Assembly (NCBI GenBank): GCA_031181105.1
Contig: JAPSLD010000001.1
Coordinates: forward strand, 1 to 63,565
Length of the DNA stretch: 63,565 nt
Direction of reading: 5' to 3'
Source of the DNA: Isoptericola sp.
Lineage (GTDB): Bacteria; Actinomycetota; Actinomycetes; Actinomycetales; Cellulomonadaceae
Shown here: positions 11,685 through 41,291 of the stretch, in pieces
How positions within the stretch are numbered: the stretch's first letter is position 1
Layout of the letters: each line of letters begins with the position of its first letter
Program-made: the position numbers and the translations under genes
Notes under the pieces: model-generated
Databases searched by the model: none
What the model was told of the DNA's origin: nothing
The model's input: only the letters and a program-made list of their open reading frames with translations

Positions 11685-12053
11685 GGGGCTGATCGGTTTC
11701 GACGGTGGTCGTGCTTCCAGGGGAAGCGGGCCGAGGATGCAGGCTCATCTCGTTAACGCATTGCCTGCAAACCTATAGGTGCCGATAACAAGCGCACCGA
11801 CTTCGCCCTCGCCGCCTGAGCGAGCTGCGTAGTCCGTCGGCCCGGGGATGCTCTCGCCTCGGTTAGCCGGCGTCAACTAGAGAGCCACTGCTCGTAGTCC
11901 TCGTCATCGGGGCTACGGGGACACCTAGATGACTGGGCCCGTCCGCACCTTGTCTGCGTGAGTGCGGGGGCCGAGAAAATCACAGCAGACTGCGCCCGGA
12001 GAAGCCCTGGAAAAGCGCCACCGGACCCGGGTTCGATTCCCGGCAGCTCCACC
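11685..12053 (+). ncRNA. ssrA: tmRNA; tag peptide ADNKRTDFALAA* at 11781-11819
   Basis: 5' GGGGCTGATCGGTTTCGAC; 3' T-arm CCGGGTTCGATTCCCGGCAGCTCCACC; canonical ALAA tag; next to smpB. Confidence 0.97.
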
Positions 12054-12056
12054 GAC
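12051..12056 (+). repeat. Left copy of direct repeat ACCGAC (putative target-site duplication)
   Basis: Identical ACCGAC at 41286-41291; both copies abut the inverted repeats. Confidence 0.75.
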
Positions 12057-12215
12057 GGCCTCCTCACGAAATACCTGGTCGCGAGGTTACGAAACCCCGT
12101 GACCAGGGGGTTGAGGTGGTCAACGACCGTGCGAGGTCGTCGAGATCGGTGTCGGACACTCTCAGTTGGGGGTTTCGACACCGATCAGGCGCTTCTCGTC
12201 CCCTGTGTAGACACG

Positions 12216-12260
12216 ACGGCCACCCCTTCACCAGCACGGTGAGGGGGTGGCCGTTTGTGT
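12216..12260 (+). terminator. Intrinsic terminator inside element left end (may serve both ssrA and the convergent transposase)
   Basis: ACGGCCACCCCTTCACC-agcac-GGTGAGGGGGTGGCCGT followed by TTGTGT. Confidence 0.7.
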
Positions 12261-12279
12261 GTTCAGTTCGGGGAGCGTG

Positions 12280-14086
12280 CTACGCGGCGCGTTTGTCGGG
12301 CGGGTGCTCTGTGGGCACGGCCTCGACGATGATGGGCAGGAAGTTGTGGAGGTTCTCAGCGGCGAGCGGCCGGCGTCGGCCCTTGGTTCTGCTCGTGGGT
12401 GAGGCCTGACGGATGGCCCAGGCGACCAGTTTGCGCAGGTTTGCTGAGAAGACCATCAGGGCGACGATGAGGGCCTGGCGCGCGTAGCCGCGTACCCGGC
12501 GCCGGTCCGGGTCTTCGAGGGCTTCCTTGTTGCCGTTCTTGATGAAGTCGTTGTAGCTCTCGATGACGGCGCGGGCGTGCCCGTAGTGCCGATACCACTT
12601 CTCGGACCTGAACGGGTACTTCTGGATGTACTTGGCGACCTTGGCCGTCCCCCTCGGCATGGTCACGCTTGCCTGCGTGCAGATGGTGTCGGGCTGCGAC
12701 ACGGGTAGTCCGTCGCGGTCCAGCGGTCCGTTGACGGGGAAGAGCGGAAGCTGGCGACGGCCGTCGTTTTTCGGCAGCGGGCACAGGTCGCATGCCAAGG
12801 TGGGCTTGCGTCCACGTGCCGGGCAGGAGTACCGGTCCATGCCGTCGCTCCTGCCGACCTCCTTGGGGATGAGCCGGAACCTCTCGCGAAGGCCGAGCGC
12901 CTTCTGGTAAGTGGTCTCCGCCTCAGTTTTCGCGGCTTCCTTGGCTGCGCCCCGTTTCATGTTGCTGGCCTTGTCCATGGCCTTGCGGTGAGTTATGGAC
13001 GCGTTTCGAAGGTGGAGCGGCATCGATGCTGAGTACCACGTGCCGTCGACGAGGATTGCCCCGTTCAGTTCGGCCTGGAGCCCCATCTGGTTGACCTTCA
13101 AGTCGGAGCAGAACTCCCAACCGAGGGCGAGTGCGGGTCTCTGGAGGACGTCTTCGTCGCTACTGGGTAGGTAGGCGCGGTCTCCGACGAGGATGCCGGT
13201 GGGGAACCCGCGCTCTGCGAGTGACCGTAGGCAGGTGATGGCGTTGGTGCCGGGTGCGCCGGGCTTGTCGAGCGCGTAGGCCGTGACGAGGTAGGGGAAG
13301 TCGTCGTCCTGCTCCCGGCGGGTACCGTCGCCCGTCATGACCACGAGGTGGGCCTCGTAGCCCCACGTCTGGCCGTCCCGGTAGAGGCCTGCCATCGCCT
13401 CGGGGCTTGTTCTTGCCTCGGGGTCGTCGGGGAAGATGGCGCGCTGGTCTGTGTGCTGGCCTCGGACGGGCATCATCGTCGCGTCGATGCAGACGTGGCC
13501 CTTGTATGCCTTCTTCGCCGAGGCGGGCATCAGGTCGTAGGACGCCTGGAGAATCTTGCCGATGAAGGTGTTCAGGCGCTTCATGCGTGCGGCGATGAAG
13601 TCGTCGCTGAGCTTGGCGAGAGCCTCGTCTACCTCTCTGCGGGTGCTCGTCGTGGCACCGGAGATTGTCGGGTAGGGATTGAGCGGTGCCGCGAGTCGAG
13701 CGCCGGCGCGTGCGGCCCGATGGAACCAGATGTCCTTGTCGGCGTCGTCGTCGGGGATGCCGAGCAGGTCCTTGCTGGCGACGTCGAGCGCCGCGAAACG
13801 CCTCCGCGACGTTGACCAAGGCGGGGCTTTGCTCGGTCATGATGAGGCAGGCCTGGACGACCAGGAACGCGGCATCGCTGATGAGGGCGGGGCGCCCGGC
13901 GGGTTCCTTGTCCTGTGCACGGTAGTTGGCTAGGTCTTGGAAGATGCCGGTCTGCTCGAAGGCGCGGTAGACGGACCAGACGAGGGAGTGCTTGAGGCTG
14001 CTCTTGTTGGTGGTGACCTTGCCGTTCTCCAGGCCCAGGAGGCTGGACAGGATGTAGCTGAGTTCCTCTTCAGGCGTTGCGGTCAT
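12280..14086 (-). pseudogene. Large IS4/IS1182-like DDE transposase (~600 aa), single frameshift near 13790
   Basis: MTATPEEE...AEAFRG joins LDVASKDLLGI...MKRLNTF after a frame change (span 1807 = 3n+1); CIDAT, GDRAY, R-x3-E-x6-K (RAVIESYNDFIK); Cys-rich insertion. Confidence 0.75.
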
Positions 14087-15012
14087 CGCAGGACGCCGTT
14101 CGTGCGCAGGTCGTTGCGAGCGTCGTCGAGGTTGGTGACGCCGGGGACGAAGGGTAGGAACCGGAAGAGGGCCTTCATGTCCTGGACGCCAGCGATGCGT
14201 ACGAGCTCGTCGATGGGTGTCCGGGCGGAGAGATGGGTCACCAGCCAGGTGGCCCGCATGCGCCGCAGTGTCGGACGGACCTTGGTCGCGGTTCGCTCGA
14301 CGAACAGGTCGATGAGGTTCTTGTTGTCGCGTGCTTGCCCGCCCGGGCGAAACGCGTACTCGTGCGCCTCGTGCTTGCGCACGAGCATCTCCAGCGGTTG
14401 CGTCCACTCGGGAAGAACAGAGACAAGGCGAGGACACTCACCCGCGGTGATGCGGAGCACGCTGCTGTGGTTCGGCTCGACGAGGACGTCGCCGACCGTG
14501 AGCCAGGCGAGCTCGACGTTCTTCACCCCGGCGCCGAGTCCTGCCGAGAGTAGGACGGAAGCGTTGTGCCGTCGGTACGAACTGTCCTGGTTTGCGGCCC
14601 AGTTGACGAGTGTGGTCACTTCGCGACCCGTGTAGGGCCGGGACGGGTTCGACCGGGGCCATGAGGCCAGGCCGCCCTCTGGGACGTAGACGTCGTGTCT
14701 GCGGGCCAACTCGACCAGCGTCGTTCGATAGGTGCCCCTCGTGGCCGGCGCGACATCGTTGAGTTCCGTCTGAACGAAGAGGTTGATGAGCCGGTAGTCG
14801 AAGAGCTTGTGGACGTCCATCGGTAGTTGCGCGTCGTTGACTGCCCAGTCGACGAACCGACTAGTGATGTGCATGTACCGCAGGGTCGTTCGGGGCGTCG
14901 CGAGCGGTGCGGCCTCGCGCACGACGTCGGCGACGAACTCCCGCACCGACTCCCAGCGGTCGGCTGGAAGGCGTGCGGGGTGGAACGTGTCGGTCACGTC
15001 GCTGGCAGGCAT
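14083..15012 (-). CDS. Tyrosine-recombinase-fold protein lacking catalytic residues
   Basis: Box I GLGAGVKNVELAWLTVGDV (R to K), box II RRMRATWL (no His), C-terminal AGVQDMKALFRF (Tyr to Phe); ATGA overlap with transposase. Confidence 0.7.
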   Translation of the reverse strand: MPASDVTDTFHPARLPADRWESVREFVADVVREAAPLATPRTTLRYMHITSRFVDWAVNDAQLPMDVHKLFDYRLINLFVQTELNDVAPATRGTYRTTLVELARRHDVYVPEGGLASWPRSNPSRPYTGREVTTLVNWAANQDSSYRRHNASVLLSAGLGAGVKNVELAWLTVGDVLVEPNHSSVLRITAGECPRLVSVLPEWTQPLEMLVRKHEAHEYAFRPGGQARDNKNLIDLFVERTATKVRPTLRRMRATWLVTHLSARTPIDELVRIAGVQDMKALFRFLPFVPGVTNLDDARNDLRTNGVLR

Positions 15013-15084
15013 GTGCATATTTCTATACGCGAAGAGGCCGGTGTGGCAAAACGCCGGGGTCGCGTCTCCAGGTACTGTGGCCCC

Positions 15085-15393
15085 GTGCCCAGACCGAGGC
15101 GCGAGCCGCCCCGAGCGTTCGCCGAGAACTGGCCCGAGCAGCCCGTCGGGGACTCGACTGCCGAGGCTGCTCGGCTCGTTGCCATGCGGCTGCGCCAGGC
15201 CATCGCAGGCCGGCCGTTGCGTCAGGTCGAGGCCATCACCGGGGTACATAACACGACCATTGGCGTCGTTCTGCGCGGTGATGCTTGGCCCGACATCTTC
15301 ACGCTGGCAAAGCTCGAACTTGGCCTCGGCGTCGACCTGTGGCCTGTCCGGTCGGGGGTCGTCGTGAGACGACGCTCCGACGGCGGCGACTGA
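15085..15393 (+). CDS. XRE-like HTH regulator, divergent from the mobility operon
   Basis: LRQVEAITGVHNTTIGVVLRGDAWPDIFTLAKLE; TACTGT -10 before GTG. Confidence 0.7.
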   Translation: MPRPRREPPRAFAENWPEQPVGDSTAEAARLVAMRLRQAIAGRPLRQVEAITGVHNTTIGVVLRGDAWPDIFTLAKLELGLGVDLWPVRSGVVVRRRSDGGD

Positions 15394-15573
15394 GGTGCGA
15401 TTCGTTCCCGCGGTGCGGGGCTTGCGGTTGCTCATGCTCGGCGCTATGCGGAACCATTCCCGGTCCGTCGAGCGGGTTTGACGGCAGAGTTCTGCGTGGA
15501 ACAGCAGACTCGTCGGGACGGCGCGCAGGGTTGTGCGTAGCGAACGTCACATCCGCGAGGGATCCTGGGTTGT

Positions 15574-15930
15574 ATGGCGCAACGCTGGGAGCCCAGTTTC
15601 GTCCCGCGCCTGTTGGCGGACGACCCGCCGCAATTTGGGTGGGATCGCGCGCTCAACTTCGGGTCAGGACCGAGGCGGCCAAGAGGCGCTGACGATAGAC
15701 GCGCCGAGCACCAACGAGCGGCTGCGAAGTTCCAGCACGAGTTCGTAATCGAGGCACGCAGTCAGCTGCGGCGGCTCCACAAGAGCCGGACCTGGCTCGC
15801 AGATCAAACAGGTCTGGACTACACGCGTATCGGCCGCATCTTCTCCGGGCAGGTGCCGATGCGCCTCACTGACCTGGCGCCGATCGCCGCAGCACTCAGC
15901 CTGACCTCCGAGTGGGCACGCGAACGATGA
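15574..15930 (+). CDS. XRE-like HTH protein
   Basis: SRTWLADQTGLDYTRIGRIFSGQVPMRLTDL. Confidence 0.65.
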   Translation: MAQRWEPSFVPRLLADDPPQFGWDRALNFGSGPRRPRGADDRRAEHQRAAAKFQHEFVIEARSQLRRLHKSRTWLADQTGLDYTRIGRIFSGQVPMRLTDLAPIAAALSLTSEWARER

Positions 15931-16002
15931 TCGCCAAAACTGCTGGCGGCGTCCGCGTGCAGCTGGCTGTACAGCGGGCGGATTCCGGGGTTCGATACGG
16001 CG

Positions 16003-19432: not shown

Positions 19433-20281
19433 GTGCCGCAGACCGACGCCGCGAACTTCGCCCTAACCCTGGGTGACATCCTCAAGGCGGCCGGCGTCGA
19501 GGATCTGCGGTCGGTGCTGGTCATCAGGCACACGTACAACGCTGAGGGCCTGAGCGGGCCGAGCGACCTGACCCCGCAGCGGGTGCTCGAATACACGCGT
19601 GTCCAGTCGGTAAGGGGCAAGTTCCCGGCGGTTCCGCCACCGCTGTGGCTGTTGTTCGTGGCCGACGGCGGGCGAAGCTCACGCTTCCTGTGGGCGTACG
19701 AGAACCATGGCGAGCTGGAAGCCCACCGCGAGGGCGACTGGAGAACGTTCGACCTGCGTCCGTCCGGCTTCATGGACAGCCTGCGGGACCGACTCGTCGT
19801 CGAGTGGTCGAGAGACACCGTCAACTGGGCCAAGTCGGCGGCCACCGCCGCAGCGTTTCCGGTCATGGAGATTGCCGACCCGGCCGTCGTCCCGTTCCCC
19901 GGGTATGACAGGCTCTTCATCGACTACGGCGAGCTGCAGAAGGTCGTCGAGGACCGGCGCTACCGGGACTGGCGGACCGCGCTCGGTGCTGTTCAGGGCA
20001 TCTACCTGATCGCCGACGAGAAGACCGGGAAGCTGTACGTGGGCAAAGCCGACGGCGCCGAGCGAATCCTCGGCAGGTGGACCGCGTACGCCCGCAGCGG
20101 CCACGGAGGCAACGTTGCGCTCCGAGCGGCGGTCGGACTGGACGCCGACCACCCACAGCACTTCAAGTTCAGCATCCTGCGCGTGTTCGGCCCAAACGCG
20201 ACGACCGCCGAGGTTGACCAGGCGGAAGCCCATTACAAGCGCGCACTGCTGTCACGCACTCACGGCTACAACCGCAACTGA
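19433..20281 (+). CDS. GIY-YIG nuclease family protein
   Basis: GIYLIADEKTGKLYVGKADG, RWTAY, EAHYK, GYNRN. Confidence 0.85.
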   Translation: MPQTDAANFALTLGDILKAAGVEDLRSVLVIRHTYNAEGLSGPSDLTPQRVLEYTRVQSVRGKFPAVPPPLWLLFVADGGRSSRFLWAYENHGELEAHREGDWRTFDLRPSGFMDSLRDRLVVEWSRDTVNWAKSAATAAAFPVMEIADPAVVPFPGYDRLFIDYGELQKVVEDRRYRDWRTALGAVQGIYLIADEKTGKLYVGKADGAERILGRWTAYARSGHGGNVALRAAVGLDADHPQHFKFSILRVFGPNATTAEVDQAEAHYKRALLSRTHGYNRN

Positions 20282-21375: not shown

Positions 21376-21822
21376 TCACAGGTAACGCTCCGTCAGTTCG
21401 CCGAGGCTCCAGGAGCCGCTCATGAGCCATTCGCGCATGATTGCGTGGGCCTCGGCGCGGTCCCAACGGGCGCTCGGCGGTACCCAGAAGCCGCACCCGT
21501 GCGCGCCGATGAACGGCTTCGAACGGCGGATGCCGTGCGTGCGCTCGACGGCGAAGGCCTCGTTGTAGCCGACCTCGACTGCGAGCCCGCCGATGGGTCC
21601 GACGTCCGCCATCGTCTGGGCGTACCGGCCCGTGGGGTGGTGGGTGAGGGACAGCCAGGCGGTGTCCTCGTGCACTCCGACCAGCGCGAGAAGCTGGTGC
21701 AGGTGGTCCCAGTCGCGCAGTGGGACTTCGTGGCCGCCGGGCCAGTTCATGTAGTAGGTGATCTCGCTCGGTAGGGGAGCCGTCGCGACGGCGGCACTGG
21801 GCCGCAGGTCGAGGACCGTCAT
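21376..21822 (-). CDS. Hypothetical protein, last gene of 5-gene operon
   Basis: ATGA overlap with the HAD gene. Confidence 0.6.
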   Translation of the reverse strand: MTVLDLRPSAAVATAPLPSEITYYMNWPGGHEVPLRDWDHLHQLLALVGVHEDTAWLSLTHHPTGRYAQTMADVGPIGGLAVEVGYNEAFAVERTHGIRRSKPFIGAHGCGFWVPPSARWDRAEAHAIMREWLMSGSWSLGELTERYL

Positions 21823-22706
21823 GGCTGCCTCTCACCGCCCTCGACCAACAGCTCGCGAACCAGCTGTCTGTGTGCGGCGCGGGCTTCTGTGACGGTCCTG
21901 GTCACGACCTTCCGGACGTTCTTCAAAGTGTCGGCTGCGGAAAGGTAAGTGAGGAACGGCTCTGCTCTCGTGCCCTGGTACTCGGTGTGAACGATGCCGT
22001 GCGGGGTGGGGGTCTTGCCGATCCGGTCGAGTTGGCCGTGCATGAACACGACACGCCACTGAGCGAACGTAGCCGGCTGGCCGTTGAAGCTCACGTACTC
22101 GTCCTCGCCGTCGTGGCCGTCGCGCCAAGCGTCGAGCACCTCGACGATGGACTCCATGCCGAACTCGTCGATCCCGAAGCGGCTGAAGGGACTGACTGGG
22201 TAGAAGCGTCCACGGTCGGTGCGGTCCAGGTGCCACTTCGCGACGTCGTAGCCCAGGTCGTCGTCCACCCACACGAAGTCGCGGCCCTTCGTAGCCTCAG
22301 CAACGGCGATGGACTTCCACCAGACCGTGGGGTCCCATGTCCGGTACGGGCCCTCGGCGTCGAGCACACGCCAGGGCAGCCCGTGCAGGCCCAGTCGCGC
22401 TCCCAGCAGGTTCGCCTCCTCGCGCCAGGTCGTGCACCAGACGGGTTCGACGCGACCTGCGTCGACGAGCTCGTTGATGCGGTCGATGTTGGCCTGGTGC
22501 CAGATGACCGTGCCCGACAGCGGTTGGGTCTCGAACTCGTACCGCATCGTCTTCGAGTCGGGTAGCCCGTCGTAGGCGTTGATGACACCGTCAACGTCGA
22601 GGACCAGCAGGGGCGGGCGCGTGGCGGGGGCAGTCATGGGGTCCTTCGTGCGAGAAGCGAGCGACGGGTGGTGGGGGCTGGCGGGAGGTTCAGGGCTGCC
22701 CGTCAC
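21819..22706 (-). CDS. HAD-superfamily phosphatase (RNA-repair-associated SAK-like); alternative start 22637
   Basis: LDVDGV, WCTTW, WWK, FVWVDDD motifs. Confidence 0.75.
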   Translation of the reverse strand: MTGSPEPPASPHHPSLASRTKDPMTAPATRPPLLVLDVDGVINAYDGLPDSKTMRYEFETQPLSGTVIWHQANIDRINELVDAGRVEPVWCTTWREEANLLGARLGLHGLPWRVLDAEGPYRTWDPTVWWKSIAVAEATKGRDFVWVDDDLGYDVAKWHLDRTDRGRFYPVSPFSRFGIDEFGMESIVEVLDAWRDGHDGEDEYVSFNGQPATFAQWRVVFMHGQLDRIGKTPTPHGIVHTEYQGTRAEPFLTYLSAADTLKNVRKVVTRTVTEARAAHRQLVRELLVEGGERQP

Positions 22707-22957
22707 GTCCGCGTCGATGCGGCGGTGGAGCCGTGGAACTCGAGCTCGTCATGCTCGATGGGCGTGGTGCGCTCGTCGACGCGCGTGCCTAGGTCGCAGA
22801 AGGTCTGGTCGTCTTCGGGATGAGGGACTTGGACCATCCGACGGGCGACACTGGCGGGGACCTGGTGTTCCCAGATCTGATGGACGCGTTGCAGGTAGCT
22901 GCGGGTCCATCGGATGGTGACCATCGGCTCGGCTGAGTCCGCACCGCGCTCGGTCAT
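22703..22957 (-). CDS. Small hypothetical protein (84 aa)
   Basis: 4-bp start/stop overlaps with both neighbours. Confidence 0.5.
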   Translation of the reverse strand: MTERGADSAEPMVTIRWTRSYLQRVHQIWEHQVPASVARRMVQVPHPEDDQTFCDLGTRVDERTTPIEHDELEFHGSTAASTRT

Positions 22958-24060
22958 GGCGACTGTGTGATGAGCGGTTGCACGTCCAAGGTGTCCAGGT
23001 CGAGAACGACGGCGTTGCCGTGGGTCCACTCCATGTCCAACACATGGGTCGTCGTCTGCGACCCGTCAGGGTGCGTGATGACGCCCGAGCGGCGCTGGTG
23101 CCAGTGCCCGCAGAAGACCAGGTGCGGCTTGGTGCGGTCGACGGCCTGGCGCAGGAGCGCGCGAACCTCGTTCGCCTCGCTCAGTTCCGGCTCGCGTACG
23201 GGGAAGCCCGACTTCACTAGCGCACCGCCCTCGGGCACGTCGTGTGTGACCAGCACGTCCAGCGGTTCGTCGCTGAGGGTGTCGACGTCCGCCTGCATGG
23301 GCGCCTCCTGCGGCCACCAGGAGACTCCCGGCGCGCGATGGCGGCGGTCCACGCTGACCGCGCCCCCGATGGCTCCGAAGCGCCGGGTGCCGACGCTCCA
23401 GCGGTGGCCTCGGGGAAGTGCACGCAGCCGCTTGCCGAGGACGAGCATGCCCTCCCGGTCGCGCTTGGCCGCGTCCAGTCGGTCGTAGTTCTCGTGGTTG
23501 CCAGGCACGACGAGCAACCGGGAGCCGTGCTTGTGCAGCGCGGCGTCCACGAGCTTGGTCATCGAGCGGTCGCTGTTGCCCCAGGGACCAATGCCGAAAT
23601 CGCCCACGTGCACGAGCAGGTGGACACCCTGCTCGGCGGCGCGCTCGATCACCTGGCGGGCGGCGCCGTCCACGCCGTGCCAGTCACCTGCCACGGCGAC
23701 GCGGCGCACGCCTCTCAGGTCGAGTCCTTCGGTCACGGTGGGGCTGCTCCTTCTCGGTTCGAACGTGGGCGTGGCTTTGATGGCGGCTGGCAGGAGCCAG
23801 GCCCACAGCTGGGCGTCGATGAGCTCGACGAGCACCGCGTGCTGCGCATGCTCTGGTGCCTCGTGCAGGCGTTCGTGCCAGGACTGGGCGTAGGCGCGGG
23901 CTGCGGATCCGAGCGCCTGGGCTGCTTCGGGAAGTGATGCGCCCTCGGCAGCGATCCAGTTAGCGCCGTCGATGCGAGCGGTCCACACCTCAGCCCCGTC
24001 GTCGTCGAGGCTCCACGCGAACACCGGGCGGTAGCAGCCCCGCTGCTCTTCGCGGCTCAT
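22954..24060 (-). CDS. Calcineurin-like metallophosphoesterase with extra N-terminal domain
   Basis: GDWHG, VGDFG, PGNHEN, THD, GHWH motifs. Confidence 0.85.
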   Translation of the reverse strand: MSREEQRGCYRPVFAWSLDDDGAEVWTARIDGANWIAAEGASLPEAAQALGSAARAYAQSWHERLHEAPEHAQHAVLVELIDAQLWAWLLPAAIKATPTFEPRRSSPTVTEGLDLRGVRRVAVAGDWHGVDGAARQVIERAAEQGVHLLVHVGDFGIGPWGNSDRSMTKLVDAALHKHGSRLLVVPGNHENYDRLDAAKRDREGMLVLGKRLRALPRGHRWSVGTRRFGAIGGAVSVDRRHRAPGVSWWPQEAPMQADVDTLSDEPLDVLVTHDVPEGGALVKSGFPVREPELSEANEVRALLRQAVDRTKPHLVFCGHWHQRRSGVITHPDGSQTTTHVLDMEWTHGNAVVLDLDTLDVQPLITQSP

Positions 24061-29174: not shown

Positions 29175-30913
29175 CAGAGCAGCGAGGCAAGGGCTGCCAC
29201 GAGGTCGTCACGCTCCAGGTCCTGGAAGCGTGTGAGCCTGAGACGGCTGGTTGCCACCTGTCCGACGAGACCTCGCGGGCGATGCCATGCAGCAGCCGCG
29301 ACTCCACCGGACTCGTCGTCCTTGTCAGCGACGTTGAGCACCGCGGCCAACGCGGCGTCGTTGTCGGTGAACGACAGGCCGAGGGTGCCCATGACCTGGT
29401 TGTCCATCGCTGCGGCGAGCGCACGGAGTGCCTCGTCGCCGGTGTCACCATCGACGTGCCAGAACACGCTTTGGCCGAGCAGGAAGTCGCGCCCGAGCAC
29501 CACTTCGATGCGGTCGTTGAGACGCGAGAGGATCTCGACGGCGAGAGCCTTGATGTGCTCAGGAGTCGTCCAGCTGTCCGATTCGGCGAGCGTGAAGTCC
29601 TCGGGGACACCGAGGTTCTCCCGCAGCGCGTCGAGGTCGGGTTCGACGAAGATGATCGAGAACCTGCGGCGCAGGGCGGCGTCCAGCGGGGCGACCGACC
29701 GGTCGGCGCTGTTCATCGCCGCGAGGATGTAGAGCGTTTTGGGCAACGAGATGGTGTCGTCGAGTGCGGCACCATCTATCTCGGGACCCAGGTGCCGGTA
29801 GGGCGTGGCAATCTGTGCACCGGAGCCGGGCTTGCCTGGCTCTGAGCGCTTGTCACGGTCGAGGAGTGCCAGCGTGTCACCGAAGATGGCCGCTGCGGAG
29901 CCTCGGTTGAACTCGTCGCACTCCAGCAGGGCGATGTTGCCCTCGGTGGACGCGTGCTGGGCGAGCTCGAGAAGTGGTCCGACATGCGGCTTGACGATGA
30001 CGGACTTGGAGCCGGCGTCGACGTCGGGCAGGAGCCCGATGACGAAGTCCTCGTAGGTGTAAGACGGGTGGAACACCAGGGACCGCACACGCGCGTTGCC
30101 CTCGGGCGCAATGCGCTTCTCCTGGAACGCTCCGTGCAGCATCTCGTCATCGAAGAGCACCTCGGGCTGACCTGCCTGGAACAGTTCGCGGTAGTCCTCC
30201 ATGGCGACCGTCTTGCCGGTGCCTGGAGGTCCGACGAGCAAGACGTTCGGGTTCTCTTCGAGCGCCTCCGCGATCTGCTTGACGAGCTTCTCTGCACGCA
30301 TCGGTACGCCCTTTCTGAAGTCCACGAACCCGCCCGGATCCCGCGTAGACAACGCACGCATCTTCGCGCGAACGACGTCGGGCAGCGTGTCCCAGGAAGC
30401 AAACTCTCGGCCAGGCGCAGGATTCTGCAGCACGACTCGCGCGTGCAGAATCGGCCCTTCGCCGTGGCGGTGGACGGCCACCAGCCACGGATGCTCCCCG
30501 GACTGCTGGAGCGTGTCCAACTGCTGGTCGGCAGCGGCATCGTTCTTGATGCCCGGAGTGCCGGCCAAGGTGGAAAGTGACGTGTCCGTAGGGCTGGGCG
30601 TGAGCTTCCACGGCGGGGGTGCGTTGTCCGTCTCCCAGCGCAGGTTCATGCGCCCGCCTTGATCAGCGAAGTCCGCGGCAGGCTTGATGAGACCGTCCGT
30701 GTACTCACCGCCTGGCCAACGCCAGGTCACGCGCGTCTGCCCGCCTGGTGCGATTCCCAGCGCGCGTTCCAGGGCCCGGGCAAGGTCGCGGCGCGGCTGC
30801 AGGAAGTCCTTGGTGTAGGTGGTGCTCTCCGGGATGCGCCCGTAGGTCGCCTTGAAGGTCGCCTTCGTGTCGGCCTTCCAGAAAAAGACCGCCTGGACGG
30901 GGAGCGCTGTCAC
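29174..30913 (-). CDS. McrB-like AAA+ GTPase with unrecognised N-terminal domain
   Basis: GPPGTGKT, FHPSYTYEDF, DEFNRG, MNSADRS, LRRRF. Confidence 0.88.
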   Translation of the reverse strand: MTALPVQAVFFWKADTKATFKATYGRIPESTTYTKDFLQPRRDLARALERALGIAPGGQTRVTWRWPGGEYTDGLIKPAADFADQGGRMNLRWETDNAPPPWKLTPSPTDTSLSTLAGTPGIKNDAAADQQLDTLQQSGEHPWLVAVHRHGEGPILHARVVLQNPAPGREFASWDTLPDVVRAKMRALSTRDPGGFVDFRKGVPMRAEKLVKQIAEALEENPNVLLVGPPGTGKTVAMEDYRELFQAGQPEVLFDDEMLHGAFQEKRIAPEGNARVRSLVFHPSYTYEDFVIGLLPDVDAGSKSVIVKPHVGPLLELAQHASTEGNIALLECDEFNRGSAAAIFGDTLALLDRDKRSEPGKPGSGAQIATPYRHLGPEIDGAALDDTISLPKTLYILAAMNSADRSVAPLDAALRRRFSIIFVEPDLDALRENLGVPEDFTLAESDSWTTPEHIKALAVEILSRLNDRIEVVLGRDFLLGQSVFWHVDGDTGDEALRALAAAMDNQVMGTLGLSFTDNDAALAAVLNVADKDDESGGVAAAAWHRPRGLVGQVATSRLRLTRFQDLERDDLVAALASLL

Positions 30914-31764
30914 GGGCGCGGACCGCCGAGGATGATCGCCTCGGGGGAGTCAGCCTGCTCGACGTCGCGGCGGTTCTGGGCCGCGACGGAACGTCGTGTA
31001 GTGAAGCGCACGATCTCATTGTCGGGGAACAGGTCTCGGACCTGCTCGGTGTCCCGGTTCGACATCACCCAGCGCACCCCTCGCTCCGTCAGCTGGTGGC
31101 ACAGAGCGGCGAGCTCGGCGAGGTCTGGCGCGCGGAACCGCTTCTCCGTGTACAGGTAAAACTTCGACGTGTCACTGATCGGCAGGTAGGGCGGGTCCAG
31201 GTAGACAAAATCCCCAGCCTTCGGCTTCTCCAGCGTGACGCGGAAGTCGTCGTTGGTGATCGTGGCGCCGATGAGAGCGTCGCTGAGCCGGTGGAGGGTG
31301 TCCTCGTCGAAGCCTCGGAACGGGCGGTCTCCCCACGGCACGTTGAACTGGCCCCACTTGTTGACGCGCCACAGTCCGTTCCAGGCTGTCTGGTTGACGT
31401 AGAGGAACCAGGCCGCCTGGCCGACAAGACTCTCAGGGACTGCCTGCCGCTGGGAGTAGTAGAAGTCCTTGGAGTCGTTGCTCTTGTAGTAGTCGAGCGC
31501 GGCCAGGAGTCCGGCGGGATCCTGCTGGACCGTCCGCCAGACCGTGATGAGGATCTCGTTCAGGTCGTGCAAGTGGGGAGCTCCGGCGATGCGGTCGCGG
31601 ATCGCCCAGAACATGGCGCCGCCACCCAGGAACGGCTCGTGGTAGTCGTCGAACTCCGCCGGTACGTGGGGCAGGATCTTCCCCAGCAACCGCGTCTTTC
31701 CGCCCGCCCACTTGAGGAACGGGCGCAGCGGCGGGGCGGAGACGTCGGTGGGGGCGGCGGTCAT
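30910..31764 (-). CDS. Dam-like (alpha class) DNA adenine methyltransferase
   Basis: FLKWAGGK, EPFLGGGA, YLDPPY, VMSN. Confidence 0.9.
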   Translation of the reverse strand: MTAAPTDVSAPPLRPFLKWAGGKTRLLGKILPHVPAEFDDYHEPFLGGGAMFWAIRDRIAGAPHLHDLNEILITVWRTVQQDPAGLLAALDYYKSNDSKDFYYSQRQAVPESLVGQAAWFLYVNQTAWNGLWRVNKWGQFNVPWGDRPFRGFDEDTLHRLSDALIGATITNDDFRVTLEKPKAGDFVYLDPPYLPISDTSKFYLYTEKRFRAPDLAELAALCHQLTERGVRWVMSNRDTEQVRDLFPDNEIVRFTTRRSVAAQNRRDVEQADSPEAIILGGPRP

Positions 31765-31864
31765 GGGTCGAAGCCTAGAGTGAGGGACCCACGCAGCCGT
31801 GGAGGTGCCCGCCGTGCCGCCGGCGGTGGATCCAGATGTCTGATGCTCCTGCTGTACTTGAGCC

Positions 31865-33142
31865 GTGACAGACGCCCTGACCCTCACGTGGCCCAACCAC
31901 GACCGCCTGCTCATCGCGAGCAACGAGACGGACTATGAGTGGATCGCGGGCGACGCCGAGCCGGTCAAGGCCAAGGACCGTGGTCGCATCGGCGAAGGCG
32001 AGGCAACCGGGGTCGTCGCGTGCGGTGACGGACTCGACGCCCTCGACGCGCTTGCGATCGACGGCAAGCTCATGGACCAGAAGATCCGGCTCGTCTACGT
32101 CGACCCGCCGTTCGGCGCCCAGAAGCGGTTCGGGCATTACCGAGACACACTGTCCACGGCAGCCTGGCTGTCGATGCTCCGCGACCGTCTCGCGGCGCTC
32201 AAGCCGCTGCTGAGCCCTGACGCTTCAGTCTGGTTGCACCTGGACGAGACGATGAGCCACCGCGCACGCCTGGTGCTCGACGAGGTCTTCGGCGAGAGCG
32301 CCTACGTGGCGACCATCGTCTGGCAGAAGCGGCTGACGGTGGAGTCACGCACCGCCGTCTCCGTCTCCCACGACCCGATCCTGGTTTACGCGCCCGCCGG
32401 TCGGAAGCACTGGAAGACCGTGCGCAACCGCATCGCGAGCACCGTGGCTGGAAGCAACCGTGACGGTGACCCGCGCGGCCCCTGGCGTGATGCTCCCTTC
32501 ACCGCACCGGGCTACCGGGCGGGTCAGCAGTACACGATCATCAACCCCGCTGGTATTGAGCTGACCCCACCGCGCGGGCGCTCGTGGTTCGCGACCCGGC
32601 CGGTATTCGAGCGCCTCGTCGCCGAGGACCGCATCTGGTGGACCAAGCGCGGCGCCGGCCAGCCGCGCATCAAGAACTTTGAGATCGACGGCACGCAGGT
32701 GCCCGGCACGATCTGGTCCGGCGAGGAGGTCGGTACCAACGACGATGCCAAGCGTCACCTTGCCGGTCTCTTCGCCGAAGCCGAATCGGTCTTCGATACC
32801 CCTAAGCCCGAGGCGCTCCTGGAGCGCATCATCCACATCGGGTCCAACCCGGGCGAACTCGTCGTGGACCTATTCGGCGGATCGGGCACCACGGCGGCCG
32901 TCGCCCACAAGATGGGCCGCCGCTGGTTCACCAGCGAACGCCTCGTCGATACGGTCAGCAACGTCCTGGTGCCCAGGCTCGCAACTGTGGTCGGCGGCAC
33001 CGACTTCGGCGGCGTGACCACCAAACACGGCTGGGCTGGCGGCGGAGCCTTCGAAGTCGTGCAGGTGCGCCCGCGCCTCGGCCGCGTCCGCGAGTTGCCC
33101 TACGTCGTCGACAGCGCAGCATCAGCGTCACGGAACCGCTGA
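31865..33142 (+). CDS. Beta-class N6/N4 DNA methyltransferase (Mod-like)
   Basis: YVDPPF, FDTPKPEALLERII, DLFGGSGTT. Confidence 0.88.
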   Translation: MTDALTLTWPNHDRLLIASNETDYEWIAGDAEPVKAKDRGRIGEGEATGVVACGDGLDALDALAIDGKLMDQKIRLVYVDPPFGAQKRFGHYRDTLSTAAWLSMLRDRLAALKPLLSPDASVWLHLDETMSHRARLVLDEVFGESAYVATIVWQKRLTVESRTAVSVSHDPILVYAPAGRKHWKTVRNRIASTVAGSNRDGDPRGPWRDAPFTAPGYRAGQQYTIINPAGIELTPPRGRSWFATRPVFERLVAEDRIWWTKRGAGQPRIKNFEIDGTQVPGTIWSGEEVGTNDDAKRHLAGLFAEAESVFDTPKPEALLERIIHIGSNPGELVVDLFGGSGTTAAVAHKMGRRWFTSERLVDTVSNVLVPRLATVVGGTDFGGVTTKHGWAGGGAFEVVQVRPRLGRVRELPYVVDSAASASRNR

Positions 33143-33207: not shown

Positions 33208-34137
33208 CTACGCACCCGAACTGGTTTGCCGCTTTGATCCGGCGGCGAACTGCTCACTGGAGAAGTCGCCGGTAAAGAGATCCTCGTTGAGCAAGCGAAG
33301 CAGCGTCTTGATGTTCTGCTTTGAGAAGTCAAGCTCGCCGCGCTTGATGAACTTGTCCGGTTCCAAGCCCCGCTTCCTCATGGCGGCGCGAAGCTCGCGG
33401 GTTGTCAGAGTCTTGATGTGCGGTCTTCGCAGGATGGCGTGGAACTTGGAGCGGTAGTGCGAGTTCCGCCGCAAGGCGTCGACGAGAGATTCTTTGGTTT
33501 CCTGAGTGATGGGAATGCCAGCCGCGAGTTCATCAACCCAGGTCGAGGTCTTCGACAGGACGGCCTCGGAATCCCTGAACATCAACTCGAACTGCCGCTT
33601 GTCCAAGACGTATGCCCACTCTGGCGTCAAGACCATGTCGTATCGGCTGTCGAACGCGAGGAGCGGGTACTCGACGTGGTCCAGCGTTCCGTCCAGAAGC
33701 CTTGCGACGATGCTCTTCGTGGCGAGCTGGACGGGGTTCCGCTTGCGGATAAACACTGTACGCGAGTCGCCCGATCCGATCACGGCGGCGTAGCAAACGA
33801 GGGGCCTGGTGCGGACTTCGTCATCCGTGGCGAGCGGGAGGGAGCTGCCCATTTCGAGTTGGTCAACGAGTTCAGTGTCGAGGAGTTCGTCTCGTGCTGC
33901 GACGAGATGCGTGTTGTCTTCGATATCGACGTCAGGGCTGTATGGATGTCCGTCGGTCATCGCCGCAGTGGTGTCAGCGGCGGCCTGGCGAAGTGCATCT
34001 TCTACGGCTCCACGGGTCTTGACGAGGCGAGTCACAACTCTGGCTCCAGTGCGCCACGCTACGACCAGTGCCAGTGGACCGCCTGTGTCGATCTGCGGCG
34101 TCCCCAATTGAAGTCCTTTCGGTTGCTTGACCATCAC
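33208..34137 (-). CDS. kwaB: KwaB-like (DUF4868) Kiwa defence protein
   Basis: LAFDSRYDM, FELMFR, LLRLLNEDLFT C-terminus; coupled to a KwaA-like gene. Confidence 0.7.
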   Translation of the reverse strand: MMVKQPKGLQLGTPQIDTGGPLALVVAWRTGARVVTRLVKTRGAVEDALRQAAADTTAAMTDGHPYSPDVDIEDNTHLVAARDELLDTELVDQLEMGSSLPLATDDEVRTRPLVCYAAVIGSGDSRTVFIRKRNPVQLATKSIVARLLDGTLDHVEYPLLAFDSRYDMVLTPEWAYVLDKRQFELMFRDSEAVLSKTSTWVDELAAGIPITQETKESLVDALRRNSHYRSKFHAILRRPHIKTLTTRELRAAMRKRGLEPDKFIKRGELDFSKQNIKTLLRLLNEDLFTGDFSSEQFAAGSKRQTSSGA

Positions 34138-34658
34138 GGCTCCAATGCCGCGTGGTCGACAATCACGTCGTCCGAGATGCGGGATGCTCGCACAGTGTCT
34201 CCCCGTAGAACGCGCTTCTTGGTAATCAGATAGCCGCTATATCCGTTCTCATCCTCGACTGCCAGGACCTTCCATCCCAGGACGAACAGCACCGGGTTGA
34301 CCTGGATGATGCCCGTGCGAACGTGTACTACGCCAGCGACGAGGAAAAACACGCCGTAAGCAAGCAGGTCCCTGCTGCTGGGCTCCGACACGGTGAGAAA
34401 GGGAAGTAGATATCCGGCAAGGTAGGCGGAAGCCTCGCCGCCCGCCGATCTGGCCGTCACGATCACGTAGTCCCCGGCGCTAACGCCTGCTTGCCGTCGC
34501 ACGAGCAGTACGACGGCTGTGACTCCGATGACCGCCGCCGCGAAGCATGCGACCCGCAAGTTTCGCCCATCGAACCGGATCGTGAGCATCACGAACAGCG
34601 GGGCGTACGACGACAGGAACATCACCGGTTTGGTGAGCAGTCCCTCGCCAGCAGCCAT
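34134..34658 (-). CDS. kwaA: KwaA-like multi-TM Kiwa protein
   Basis: FLSSYAPLF, YLAGYLLPF, VNPVLFVLGWKV; about four TM segments. Confidence 0.7.
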   Translation of the reverse strand: MAAGEGLLTKPVMFLSSYAPLFVMLTIRFDGRNLRVACFAAAVIGVTAVVLLVRRQAGVSAGDYVIVTARSAGGEASAYLAGYLLPFLTVSEPSSRDLLAYGVFFLVAGVVHVRTGIIQVNPVLFVLGWKVLAVEDENGYSGYLITKKRVLRGDTVRASRISDDVIVDHAALEP

Positions 34659-34764
34659 GCGCTCACAGTACGAGTTCGGTCCGACAAAGGTCCTCAACTT
34701 GATCGGGTGAGGTGGCCGCCGTCGGGCTACCGAGCGCCGTCGTCACGTCCTTCCATGAAGGCGC

Positions 34765-35712
34765 TCAGAACTTGCCCTTGTCCTCCGGGTGCTTTGCTTC
34801 ATAGTCGCCGCGGAGCTCGTGGATGGACTTCCAGCCGCCGTCACGCGAGGCGTGCCACCAGCGCCATGCGTTCTGCGTCTTGCCAGGAAGCGGGTTGGTG
34901 GCGACCTCCCAGGCGCGATTCGGGCTGATGCAGACCTGCCCGTTGACGATGAGATTGCCGTTGGCGAGCACCTTCGCCTGCACACCTGAGGAACCTCGCA
35001 GTGTCTCGCCATCGCTGAGGTAGCCACGCGCGACCATCCCGGCGATCTTCCCCCAATGTGACTGCCGCCCGCGGCGCTGCTCGAACGGGGGAGCAGAGAC
35101 CGCCGGTGGTGCAGGACGAGCCGCCTCCTCCTGGGCCAGAGAGGGCGGGCGGGCGGCCTCCGCGATCATGTCCACCGCAACCGTCTCAGGGATGTCGGCC
35201 CGAATCTGCACGCGCCCCTTGGTGACGTCGTAGCCGAGCAATCTCAGGACCACCGTCACGTTCGGCAGGACGCCCCGACGCAGACGCGACTTCTCCCGCT
35301 CGGTCGGCGTGTCGTCCGCCGGGGTGTTGTTGTTCTGCGTGACAGCGAACCGGAAACCCGAAAGATGCTGGTAAAGCGCGCCCTCTAGGTAGCCAGCCGA
35401 GGCAGACGTGAACGCGTCGTTCCAGCCCGGAAGGATGACCAGCACCCGGTTCCACCACGACTTGTCCTTCAGGTGGCTAGCGATTCGCTGGGCGACGGTG
35501 CCCGTACCCACCTTGCCGACGTAGAACGTCCACGCCCCGTTCTCTCCCGGCGCAGGCCCGAGCAAGATGTAGGTGTCGAGGGCACCCTCGGCGCTCGCCG
35601 CAAAGGCCCGCTCCAGAAGGACGAACCGGTAGGCCGAGTCTGGTACTCGGAACTCGATGGCCTTCCGCGTGTCGTCGGGGACGATCACCTGAACGTCGAC
35701 GTCTTCACTCAA
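34765..35712 (-). CDS. GIY-YIG-like nuclease with C-terminal RAMA/DUF4357-like domain
   Basis: TYILLG...FYVGK, RIASHLKDKSWW, YLE; C-terminal NGNLIVNG...SPNRA...NAWRWW. Confidence 0.65.
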   Translation of the reverse strand: MSEDVDVQVIVPDDTRKAIEFRVPDSAYRFVLLERAFAASAEGALDTYILLGPAPGENGAWTFYVGKVGTGTVAQRIASHLKDKSWWNRVLVILPGWNDAFTSASAGYLEGALYQHLSGFRFAVTQNNNTPADDTPTEREKSRLRRGVLPNVTVVLRLLGYDVTKGRVQIRADIPETVAVDMIAEAARPPSLAQEEAARPAPPAVSAPPFEQRRGRQSHWGKIAGMVARGYLSDGETLRGSSGVQAKVLANGNLIVNGQVCISPNRAWEVATNPLPGKTQNAWRWWHASRDGGWKSIHELRGDYEAKHPEDKGKF

Positions 35713-37860: not shown

Positions 37861-38571
37861 TCAGTCGATGGGTCGAACGAGGTCAGGACTGTCGTTCTGG
37901 ACATTGCCGACGGCGACACCGACCTTGATGGGTGTCAGGTGTGGCTCTGGCACCTTGGCGAGTAGGGCGTCGACCTCTTCGGTGTCGGTGAGCTCGGGGT
38001 CAAGCCAGGCGTCCCAGAAGTCCGCGGGCAGCAGCAGCGGCGAGCGGTCGTGGATGTGCCCGAGCGTGTCCGTGGCGTTCGTTGTGATGACCGTTAGCGA
38101 CCACAGCCACCTGTCTGCGTCTTCGTCGCCCTTGCTCGGGTCGCGCCACAGTTCGTACAGGCCCGCAGCGGCGAGCGGGGCACCGTCGGGGTCGGTGAGG
38201 TAGTAAGGCTGCTTGCGACCCTCGCCGGACTCGGGTGCCTGCCACTCGTAGTAGCCGTCCATCGGCACGATGAGACGCCGTCGGGACGCCGCGCGTCGGA
38301 AGGAAGGCTTGTCGGTGATGGTCTCGAAGCGGGCGTTGATCATGCGGGCGCCGGTCTTGATGTCCTTGGCCCAGGAGGGCACCAGGCCCCAGTTGAGCGT
38401 TCGCAGCTGGCGGGCCACGTGCCCGGACTGCTCCCGTTCGAGGACCGCGCGGACATCCTGAGTGGGCGCGATGTTCCGAGAGGGTCCGAGTTCCTCGCCG
38501 ACGAGTTCGGCGACATGGAACCGATCTGCGATCTCCTGATCGCGGCGCGCGTTCGCATACCTGCCACACAT
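37861..38571 (-). CDS. SOS response-associated peptidase (SRAP/YedK/HMCES)
   Basis: MCGRY, WGLVPSW, INARFET, GYYEW, IHDRSP. Confidence 0.92.
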   Translation of the reverse strand: MCGRYANARRDQEIADRFHVAELVGEELGPSRNIAPTQDVRAVLEREQSGHVARQLRTLNWGLVPSWAKDIKTGARMINARFETITDKPSFRRAASRRRLIVPMDGYYEWQAPESGEGRKQPYYLTDPDGAPLAAAGLYELWRDPSKGDEDADRWLWSLTVITTNATDTLGHIHDRSPLLLPADFWDAWLDPELTDTEEVDALLAKVPEPHLTPIKVGVAVGNVQNDSPDLVRPID

Positions 38572-39648: not shown

Positions 39649-39684
39649 AAGGCCGCCTCCGGGGACGTTCCGGAAGGTGGCCTT
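39649..39684 (+). terminator. Attenuator-like hairpin
   Basis: AAGGCCGCCTCCGG...CCGGAAGGTGGCCTT. Confidence 0.55.
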
Positions 39685-39701
39685 AGTCATAACAGAATCA
39701 A

Positions 39702-39769
39702 GTCTCCTCAGCGCAAGTGGTGTGCAACGGCTCTCGGGCCGTCGAGAGGTTCGATCCCTCAAAGAGACG
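39702..39769 (+). ncRNA. Degenerate tRNA-like cloverleaf
   Basis: Acceptor GTCTC/GAGAC, D arm GCGC-AAGTGGT-GTGC, ACGGC-TCTCGG-GCCGT, T arm GAGG-TTCGATC-CCTC. Confidence 0.5.
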
Positions 39770-40014
39770 CGTAGCGCCCTCCGGCAACGGCGGAGCGCAT
39801 GAGCCCTCCGGGGCAGTTGTCAACTGCACAGTGGACGAGAAGATTCACCGCACCGAGCCAACGGTGCGGTACGAAGACCCATCCCGTGGTCCGGCCTCAT
39901 CCTGTTGGGGTGAGGGCCGGACCACAGATGGGTCGCGCTGCTCGAACCGGCTGCGGCTGTGAGAGCGGCGGTTCGCGCAGCGGCTCCGTCGGCTGCCACC
40001 ACTACTGTTGCCGC

Positions 40015-41139
40015 ATGGCGGATCCTTCGGAATATGAGCTCGCGGCATGGCGCGACGTCCAGCGGTTCGAAGGGCGCCCGCTGACGCGAGGGATGCAGAG
40101 CGCCAGCGAGCGGGTATCCAACGGCGCCGCGGAACTCAGCAAGCGGGCCATGAAGTTCTTGGAGGGCCACCCCAAGGCGCAAGAAGCACTCTCGCGGGGG
40201 CAGGAAGCCGTCACAAAGGGCGCACACGCTCTCGGCACTGGAGCTCGCGGGGTTGCGGATGCTGTACCCGACGGGATGACCGACTGGGGTCGCTCCGCCG
40301 TCGACTCGATGCGGCAGACGGCTGCACGGGTCTCACGAGCGGGCCTCTCCTCGAAGCGTGTGGTCTCGCGGCACCAGAAGCGCGGGCACGATGTCAAGGC
40401 ACTCGCAGATGTGCGGCGCCTTGATCTTGAGCGGGTTGATTCCGTCCGTGGGCGTGGAGCGAGTTGGTACTACCCGGCCGTCGCCGCACTCTCGGGGGCA
40501 GGCGCAGGGGTCGTTATCACTGGCGGGCAGCTCGCCGTCACCGTCTCCGGTGGGGTAGCGACGGCACCTTCAGGAGGTGCAATCGCCGGTGCAGTCATCG
40601 GTGATGCGACAGTCGTCCTCGGTCTGGCCTCTCGTTGCGTCGGCAACGTCTCCTTGCTCTACGGCTACGACCCGGAGGAACCCTCGGAGAAACTCTTCGT
40701 GATGTCCGTCGTCAACGCGGGAACCGCCATGTCGGCCACCGCGACGACCGCAGCAATGGCCGACATCTCGCGCCTGACCCAGGCGCTTGTTCGTGGCAAG
40801 GCCTGGGCGATCCTGGACAAGTCGCTCGTCGCCCAGGTTTCCAAAGCGTTCGCGAAGGCATTCGGCGCGCGCTTCACCAGGCAGTCGCTCGGCAAGGTTG
40901 TGCCTGCAGCGGGGATTGTTCTCGGCGGCACGTTCAACTGGGCCACCCTGGAATCGATCGTTGATGCCGCTGACGTTGCATATCGGAGGCGGTTCCTCCT
41001 GGAGAAGTACCCGCAACTCGGCGAAGAGGAAGCAGTAGGACCGGCGCCCGCTGTTAGCTCCGACAGCGGAGATGATGCGGACGAGGCGATCAGCGTGCTC
41101 GACGAGCTCGCGGACGTCGGCGGCCCCGACCTTCGCTGA
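40015..41139 (+). CDS. EcsC family protein
   Basis: GAGAG...GGAIAG, LLYGYDP, LGKVVPAAG, YRRRFL. Confidence 0.75.
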   Translation: MADPSEYELAAWRDVQRFEGRPLTRGMQSASERVSNGAAELSKRAMKFLEGHPKAQEALSRGQEAVTKGAHALGTGARGVADAVPDGMTDWGRSAVDSMRQTAARVSRAGLSSKRVVSRHQKRGHDVKALADVRRLDLERVDSVRGRGASWYYPAVAALSGAGAGVVITGGQLAVTVSGGVATAPSGGAIAGAVIGDATVVLGLASRCVGNVSLLYGYDPEEPSEKLFVMSVVNAGTAMSATATTAAMADISRLTQALVRGKAWAILDKSLVAQVSKAFAKAFGARFTRQSLGKVVPAAGIVLGGTFNWATLESIVDAADVAYRRRFLLEKYPQLGEEEAVGPAPAVSSDSGDDADEAISVLDELADVGGPDLR

Positions 41140-41285
41140 CCCGGTGGAGTAGGGTCCGGGGCGAGGACTTCTAGCGCGGGTTTTGGCCTCCTGACCTGCG
41201 GCTTGGGAAATCTCGCGGGCCTACACGGGATCTTCACATTCGGTCGAGGGTCTCCGTGCTGGTCAGGGAGATAACTAAGGAGGCC

Positions 41286-41291
41286 ACCGAC
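41286..41291 (+). repeat. Right copy of direct repeat ACCGAC
   Basis: Immediately follows AGGAGGCC. Confidence 0.75.

Follow-up and report, generated by a model that had tools for sequence, protein, structure and literature searches.

In the description of Tn6022-type Tn7-like transposons by Faure et al. 2023 (PMC10293859), TnsF is a tyrosine-recombinase derivative lacking catalytic activity that acts together with TnsA, TnsB, TnsC, and TniQ and targets comM. According to that paper, the known selectors of Tn7-like transposons all use TnsC, and CyCAST-type elements are reported there to home to tRNA genes. A classification of tyrosine recombinases is given by Smyshlyaev et al. 2021 (PMC8138268), in the main text of which the word "inactive" does not appear. 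Here, we describe an element inserted behind the transfer-messenger RNA (tmRNA) gene ssrA of Isoptericola sp. (contig JAPSLD010000001.1, positions 1 to 63,565; this whole stretch of 63,565 nt is called the window). The element is almost certainly a cargo transposon of one actinobacterial family with a DDE (Asp-Asp-Glu) transposase. The reading that we favor, and consider fairly probable, is that the window holds a frameshifted 29.2-kb copy of this family, in which the partner gene of the transposase encodes a dead, T-arm-binding target selector that recruits the transposase without TnsC. The broader claim, for which we rate the chances only a little above even, is that of a two-protein, target-specific class of transposons with a domesticated dead recombinase that reads a T-arm motif common to tRNA and tmRNA genes, up to about 37 kb of cargo, and no TnsC, TniQ, or guide RNA, possibly with a tRNA-independent plasmid route. 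The features of the window that concern the core of the element are the following.

11685-12053, plus strand: tmRNA gene (ssrA), the target, intact (ARAGORN).
12051-12056, plus strand: left copy of the 6-bp target duplication ACCGAC, starting from the discriminator base (A) (sequence; family geometry).
12057-12095, plus strand: near end, with a perfect 8-bp terminal inverted repeat (TIR) and a pair of ACGAAA boxes spaced by 23 bp (sequence).
12211-12260, no strand assigned: strong hairpin between ssrA and the convergent transposase gene (z −7.35).
12280-13800, minus strand: DDE transposase, C-terminal frame (P0001, 12280-13584; D34, D135, E342).
13800-14086, minus strand: DDE transposase, N-terminal 95 aa in another frame (hhalign probability 95, E 3.6e-8 to the family N terminus).
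14083-15021, minus strand: partner, with a full tyrosine-recombinase fold (core-binding plus catalytic domain) and a degenerate active site (AlphaFold2 [AF2], Foldseek, Atlas).
41259-41285, minus strand: far end, with the TIR and TGACC at positions 21 to 25 (41261-41265) (sequence).
41286-41291, plus strand: right copy of the target duplication ACCGAC (sequence).

The junctions in the window are real: each copy of the 6-bp duplication has on its inner side one arm of an 8-bp inverted repeat (GGCCTCCT at 12057-12064 and AGGAGGCC at 41278-41285), so that a 29-kb element bounded in this way behind the tmRNA was found just as the preliminary description of the window had claimed. As a chance control, an 8-bp inverted repeat with a matching 6-bp direct repeat within 50 kb was seen at 76 of 20,000 random junctions of the same genome. 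The junction 14-mer occurs twice in the 2.7-Mb genome, one of the two occurrences being here. The GC content per kilobase is 0.62 to 0.72 inside the element (mean, 0.658) and 0.736 over the next 5 kb. Measured against the family, the 8-bp repeat is a weak member of an imperfect TIR of about 17 bp (10 of 17 matches), and the near-end repeat (lag 23, 7 of 12 matches) alone does not rise above background; the ACGAAA boxes are likely transposase sites. The far end at 41285 is independently backed by the TGACC at positions 21 to 25, which stands in the same register in 7 of 10 large relatives. Further boxes of the TGACC type are seen at 12100 and in numerous flanks, and a second GGCCTCCT, followed by GACCTGCGG, lies on the plus strand at 41186-41202, 85 bp inside the far end. 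The hairpin at 12211-12260 is likely a replacement terminator.

The proposal of a site-targeted DDE cargo transposon that leaves ssrA intact holds across the family, with TIRs, a true target duplication, and an intact RNA gene. Both ends were called in 38 of the 63 elements tested, 34 of them short (3.0 to 3.3 kb) and called without using the duplication. Exact duplications flank 21 of the 34; with the four longer elements, for which a duplication was required, there are 25 (22 of 5 bp and 3 of 6 bp), representing 22 distinct sequences. The duplication starts at the discriminator base and is usually 5 bp long, sometimes 6 or 7, and variable in sequence. Thus, the conserved TIRs and variable duplications anticipated for relatives are there, but their usual length is 5 bp and not 6. 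For large elements, a search conditioned on the duplication gave clear ends in 10 of 13 genomes (9.4 to 36.7 kb; 5, 6, or 7 bp), whereas a blind search found 6 of 13 exactly and 2 more at the same site one base off; in a new set, 3 of 10 were found exactly by the blind search. Near ends carry a box of about 12 bp repeated at a lag of 22 to 23 in 61 of 63 elements. The direct repeat extends 0 to 4 bases into the acceptor stem, and in the window it reaches 8 bp because the terminal CC of the element meets the CC of ssrA. Three copies in OY969891.1 (L097, L098, and L102) show a one-base mismatch between the duplication copies, either an assembly error or a repair bias. Nested far ends or second partner or transposase pieces lie inside three large elements (L150 in G355, L140 in G309, and L064), and in G355 two ends, separated by 1.9 kb, are followed by the same 6-bp flank. 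These cases suggest that large elements grow when an outer end is used.

Family loci numbered 104, the window included, and came from the best 80 of 185 stretches. Ten with short flanks were dropped, leaving 94, which are not independent of one another. Other rows left out of the analysis were L049 (no local profile match), L237 (no flank), and the duplicates L223 and L248-L250. A convergent tRNA or tmRNA 3′ end lies within 300 nt of the transposase stop in 62 of the 94, compared to 5 of 1,233 background genes, and a further 15 loci have a T-loop motif only. In a second, even draw of 400 genomes, 17 of 18 strong places were at a tRNA or tmRNA gene (two of them tmRNA; one of the 17 was counted although its chosen frame runs 19 nt into the tRNA). 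The enrichment at such 3′ ends foreseen for homologues was seen. None of seven weak IS1182-, IS5-, or IS256-like matches had a tRNA or a partner (for tRNA, 0 of 6 without the unpublished G844). The targets include tRNAs for Leu, Ala, Glu, Ser, Arg, Met, Pro, His, Thr, Gly, Lys, Val, Asn, and Cys as well as tmRNA; tmRNA is thus a target, as had been supposed, but the family is not specific to it. tRNA-Leu(CAG) is the target in 19 calls from several Actinomycetes branches, and the 3-kb elements of Acidimicrobiia use many tRNA types.

The position of insertion is narrow. A GG start exactly 5 nt past the acceptor stem was found in 62 of 78 cases, and 61 of 79 junctions with a T-loop lie in full tRNAs. 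Copies within one genome are 99.1 to 100% identical and sit at different targets, an indirect sign of recent spread. In OY969891, orphan T-arm fragments or a look-alike are the sites of three of the four near-identical copies; an intact gene therefore seems unnecessary, with the caveats of long-read errors and of the order of events. Two look-alike sites have no Rfam match at all. In tandem pile-ups (L050, L057, L090, L104, L106, and L120), the newer copy lies between the tRNA and the older copy, with a duplication between the two.

The family is widespread in Actinomycetota, with a prevalence of about 5% among the genomes sampled (22 of 401 genomes in the order at E 1e-10); at class level, the count is 26 of 401 (E 1e-6), 7 of which are weak matches to ordinary insertion sequences (IS). 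Two loci (L085 and L125) carry the label of non-actinobacterial metagenome-assembled genomes and are possibly mis-binned. Phage records and viral contigs gave no match, and there was no PDB sequence match at E 1.

The transposase is a DDE enzyme, although the window copy is broken. Forty-nine family proteins were found, the full-length ones mostly of 520 to 640 aa, and D34, D135, and E342 are invariant in all 29 aligned. In an AF2 model of an intact relative (L061; predicted local distance difference test [pLDDT] score, 90), the placement of strands and helices fits an RNase H-like DDE triad. This model gave no Foldseek hit at E 0.001, and its best rows, all weak, were DDE transposases (E 0.010 to 0.019), among them ISCth4, piggyBac, Mos1, and Tn5 (E 0.010 to 0.016). 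The nearest profile is IS1182, with weak matches in 22 of 62 members (best E 7.9e-8); P0001 scores 16.8 bits on the NCBIfam IS1182 model, below its cutoff of 270. Together, the D-D-E triad, the TIRs, and the short variable duplication place the family among DDE elements. The catalytic motif set of the window gene had been taken for an intact IS4/IS1182-like DDE set; the triad is indeed present, the copy is frameshifted, and the likeness to IS1182 is only distant. There is a single frameshift near 13800. Its letters are identical in contigs of runs X1 and X2, from two studies (either may be the source sample), in a read check that covered 11300-16000 of the window, and the frameshift is therefore probably a real lesion. 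A programmed frameshift was considered; no slippery heptamer was seen and homologues are single open reading frames (ORFs), and the site was treated as a lesion.

The ATG of the transposase overlaps the partner stop codon (ATGA). In the window, the partner is a protein of 312 aa without a Pfam or NCBIfam match, and both core proteins are mostly annotated as hypothetical. Its AF2 model (pLDDT 94) matches XerA, XerH, and Cre in Foldseek (E 2e-7 to 5e-7). At the catalytic R, H, R, H/W, and Y positions, the window copy has K, R, R, V, and F. Among 49 partners, the first Arg is kept in 25, the His of HxxR in 3, and the second His/Trp in none; judged from these residues, the partner is likely catalytically dead. 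The preliminary description was right that no intact integrase, TnsC, or TniQ is recognizable, but it had missed the tyrosine-recombinase-fold gene at 14083-15021.

The partner and transposase are closely associated. First, the partner lies upstream of the transposase in 78 of 81 loci with enough flank, and the three misses are two 5′-truncated transposases (L123 and L134) and a second copy in G375 (L053). Second, in a search starting from the partner, 7 of the 9 best matches adjoin a transposase (4 of 6 without the unpublished G442, G571, and G647), and none of 18 weak matches, which resemble ordinary recombinases, does so. Third, tree distances of the two proteins correlate (r 0.76, reached in 0 of 999 permutations), which is a weak argument since kin share history, and 19 of 34 supported partner splits recur in the transposase tree. 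In L108, L110, and L116, partner and transposase form one open frame, as true fusions or through frameshift errors. Several partner-like recombinase domains stand in tandem in L197 (G491) and L194 (G574), possibly a related system; those of L197 have no transposase nearby.

In the mechanism that we propose, the transposase would bind the end repeats and join both ends to a target staggered by 5 to 7 bp, probably by Tn5-like cut-and-paste. The partner would bind and bend the conserved GGTTCRANYCC stretch 21 to 11 bp before the discriminator, fixing position and orientation, and would recruit the transposase directly, without TnsC. All 76 tRNA positions would stay on the host side and the element would supply a hairpin, leaving the RNA gene usable and the site reusable. 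The window copy would need transposase in trans. Because of the copies at orphan fragments or a look-alike in OY969891 and the look-alikes without an Rfam match, we infer that the target is chosen by DNA sequence at the T-arm; by analogy with TnsF, the dead recombinase would be its reader. The minimal elements have no space for an ATPase, and a Walker A motif was found in only 1 of 34 of them; in the 3.0- to 3.3-kb elements, the far-end stretch outside the two genes is shorter than 650 nt.

Beyond the right junction, the window departs from what had been expected, and two further features are needed.

41292-41896, no strand assigned: an older insertion beyond the element, containing a separate hairpin (41327-41360) and an ORF of 83 aa; not present in G421.
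41897-41936, plus strand: ancestral ssrA terminator with a damaged left arm (G421 alignment; fold z −2.0, compared to −6.6 in G421).

The hairpin predicted to lie 35 bp from ssrA after removal of the element exists, 35 nt past 41291 (41327-41360; z −4.8 for a 90-nt stretch), but the ancestral terminator of ssrA is a different one. G421, the nearest relative in which the site is empty (ssrA 98% identical), reads ssrA-ACC-TGTGACGAAGGCCC, its terminator aligns to 41897-41936, and its TGTGACGAAGGCCC-type flank is present as a loose end in run X2. By the terminator match, about 600 bp of older inserted DNA would separate the element from the ancestral terminator. The element would thus have landed ahead of this foreign DNA, which would explain why the empty junction differs. 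A differing junction in a relative had been set in advance as a sign against the element, and on this point the comparison came out adversely. None of the 33 genomes of the genus that were searched shows the predicted empty site (ssrA-ACCGAC followed by the flank from 41292); in 18 congeners, ssrA is empty, yet they are too distant to show the junction. A consensus terminator scan of 41100-42100 gave no match. A reading of 41292-41896 as an earlier copy from this family is not supported, its repeat (lag 21, 7 of 12) being at the background level. The right edge of this segment faintly resembles a decayed ssrA 3′ end.

Several observations weigh against our reading. First, 17 of the 94 loci have neither a tRNA nor a T-loop. 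Five of these lie directly against another copy, two show a tRNA end that is a remnant or masked, in one a tRNA is 617 nt away from an internal stop, and nine are unexplained. Second, three Streptomyces plasmid copies (of 6 records) carry both genes and are not at tRNAs; no tRNA, T-loop, or credible TIR or target duplication was found for these three. In one plasmid copy (L218:21790-22020; NZ_CP108257.1), a type I-E cas operon stands on one side of the gene pair and a CRISPR array on the other; its near end abuts a repeat, it is not at a tRNA, and this placement could hint at a second targeting route or at passive capture. Third, the ends of the window copy rank only 633 and 2,878 of 127,074 on the family end profile, the end at 41285 ties for the top score with a site at 16500 when the search is blind to the duplication, flank mismatches occur in 13 of the 34 short elements, and the empty site of the closest relative (G421) is not the predicted one. 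Fourth, the conservation of the T-arm is circular, because the T-arm consensus was used for finding junctions, and binding of the partner to DNA, to the T-arm, or to the transposase is argued from analogy. Finally, 17 of the 40 supported splits in the transposase tree conflict with the partner tree, the analysis turned up no intact relative without the partner that could be a natural control, and the catalytic Tyr persists in 33 of 49 partners and the second Arg in all 49.

The strongest of the alternatives, which we regard as unlikely though well worth keeping in mind, is that reading of the T-arm is done by the transposase, the dead recombinase being a regulator or else a factor with an architectural or end-binding role (for example, at the TGACC box or the 22- to 23-bp repeats). 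The transposase is about 200 aa longer than the nearest ordinary IS matches, with a large insertion domain containing a conserved Cys and about 190 residues between the second Asp and the Glu; the conserved TGACC-type box of the far end has no assigned ligand; and the plasmid copies keep the partner, yet they are not at tRNAs. However, tyrosine-recombinase folds are sequence-specific DNA binders, and the nearest transposases without a partner, though very distant, are not at tRNAs (0 of 7). A tyrosine recombinase has also been co-opted as a target selector in Tn6022, as described in PMC10293859.

Far less probable is guidance by transcription of the host or by its processing of RNA at the 3′ ends of stable RNAs (a terminating polymerase, an R-loop, or the tRNA itself), with the partner as an adaptor. 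Insertions do keep one orientation with respect to transcription, and intact genes make up most of the targets, as the 61 of 79 junctions show; against this stand a spacing from the T-loop that is exact to the base and the recent copies at two look-alikes without an Rfam match and at orphan 3′ fragments, with the order of events at the fragments unproven. An active atypical tyrosine recombinase that excises, circularizes, or resolves the element beside the DDE enzyme is slightly less probable again: the fold is complete, the Tyr and second Arg are kept as given above, and another Arg, in the beta hairpin, is invariant, but both His positions are lost family-wide, the first Arg remains in only 25 of 49, the Tyr is gone from 16 of 49 including the window copy, and variable duplications beside TIRs are a DDE product. 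The least probable alternative, an ordinary integrase island with the 8-bp recombinase core CCACCGAC (the second option of the preliminary description) or a chance match at 41285 with the true end elsewhere, draws on the 8-bp reading of the window repeat, the commonness of CCACCGAC (3.8 expected per 51 kb), a 14-of-17 match to the near end at 16500, and foreign DNA running about 600 bp beyond 41291, but the recombinase core is rejected because the repeat enters the acceptor stem by 0 bases in 7 of 25 relatives with an exact duplication. In addition, searches of the element gave no intact integrase, a duplication is lacking at the 16500 site, which falls within a 255-aa ORF (and was treated as chance), and the TGACC at 21 to 25 and the exact 6-bp copy both fall at 41285.

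The rest of the element consists of accessory genes and cargo.

15085-15393, plus strand: divergent XRE-type helix-turn-helix (HTH) gene (presumed start codon and XRE label).
15574-15930, plus strand: second HTH-like gene, with homologues in 5 relatives (Pfam HTH_31, E 0.003).
19433-20281, plus strand: UzuA (GIY-YIG) defense protein (PADLOC, E 8e-96).
25199-25549, plus strand: Lsr2-like protein (Pfam).
27885-33142, no strand assigned: McrC-like and McrB-like proteins and two DNA methyltransferases.
33208-35712, minus strand: KwaB and KwaA (Kiwa-like) and PDC-S14.
37861-38571, minus strand: SRAP protein (Pfam, E 7e-68).
39799-41139, plus strand: EcsC-family protein (Pfam, E 3e-20).

The divergent HTH gene is conserved in the Actinomycetes branch (18 distinct places) and was found in none of the 34 minimal 3-kb elements. 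Family elements range from 3 to 37 kb, and large ones often carry defense cargo: among 10 large relatives (101 selected ORFs), it was clear in 7, limited to a kinase in 2, and absent in 1. A six-gene cluster on the minus strand at 21376-25097, with a HAD_SAK_2 domain, a metallophosphoesterase, and other genes without a family match, is a candidate defense or RNA-repair module.

The family is apparently undescribed; no description was found in the literature searched, which comprised main texts (subscription papers, supplements, ISfinder, and TnCentral being outside its scope). It explains a class of actinobacterial defense islands, and because both proteins are mostly labeled hypothetical, integrase-based island finders likely miss it. 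If our reading is true, target selection would have arisen here independently, a tyrosine recombinase would have been domesticated a second time, and dozens of safe sites per genome would be open to cargo, each at one exact base. The intact 3-kb copies make the mechanism directly testable and could become a compact means of inserting large DNA at safe sites of actinobacterial genomes.

By membership, the family is outside the Tn7-like elements, IS1182, and the integrase islands, though it resembles Tn7 homing. Like the yeast element Ty3 and casposons, it favors tRNA genes as safe sites, but with other enzymes and in other hosts; Ty3, which is guided by Pol III factors, inserts near the transcription start, whereas this family inserts at the 3′ end. 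Integrase islands at tRNA genes and ssrA share the neighborhood and the defense cargo, and the partner has the same fold as their enzyme, but here the 3′ end of the gene is not duplicated, TIRs and a variable 5- to 7-bp duplication are present, the active site is degenerate, neither an intact R-K-H-R-H/W-Y set nor a serine integrase was found, and the 0- to 4-base extension of the direct repeat is explained by the terminal C run of the element. With the IS1182/IS4 clan, the transposase shares the DDE triad with an insertion domain, the weak IS1182 profile matches, and a Y-3-R-3-E-6-K motif, which we take to be the one labeled YREK. IS1182 is a single-gene element; in contrast, this family has a transposase of about 600 aa, a near-constant partner gene (78 of 81 loci, compared to 0 of 7 ordinary IS matches), a fixed tRNA target, and cargo of up to 37 kb.

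Tn7 makes a 5-bp duplication and forms tandem islands. Tn7-like homing to tRNA genes, by TnsD or a guide RNA, likewise gives oriented insertion downstream of a tRNA together with cargo, but it needs TnsABC plus TniQ/TnsD or Cas proteins, and none was found here: the window ORFs scanned (48 and 25) gave no Pfam or NCBIfam match to a TnsB-type transposase with TnsC, their only AAA+ protein is McrB-like, and Pfam, NCBIfam, and PADLOC scans of the window revealed no TniQ/TnsD or Cas selector. A further difference is that one element here uses several tRNA types per genome. As far as can be compared from the description in PMC10293859, TnsF differs in its setting, since this family has a core of two genes without an ATPase, a transposase that is like IS1182 and not like TnsB, and many tRNA types plus tmRNA for targets, with neither a tnsABC-tniQ operon nor a comM target. 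In both systems, however, a fixed-site DDE transposon encodes a tyrosine-recombinase fold that has lost catalytic residues and is inactive (for the partner, by prediction), and TnsF is the closest analogue of the partner.

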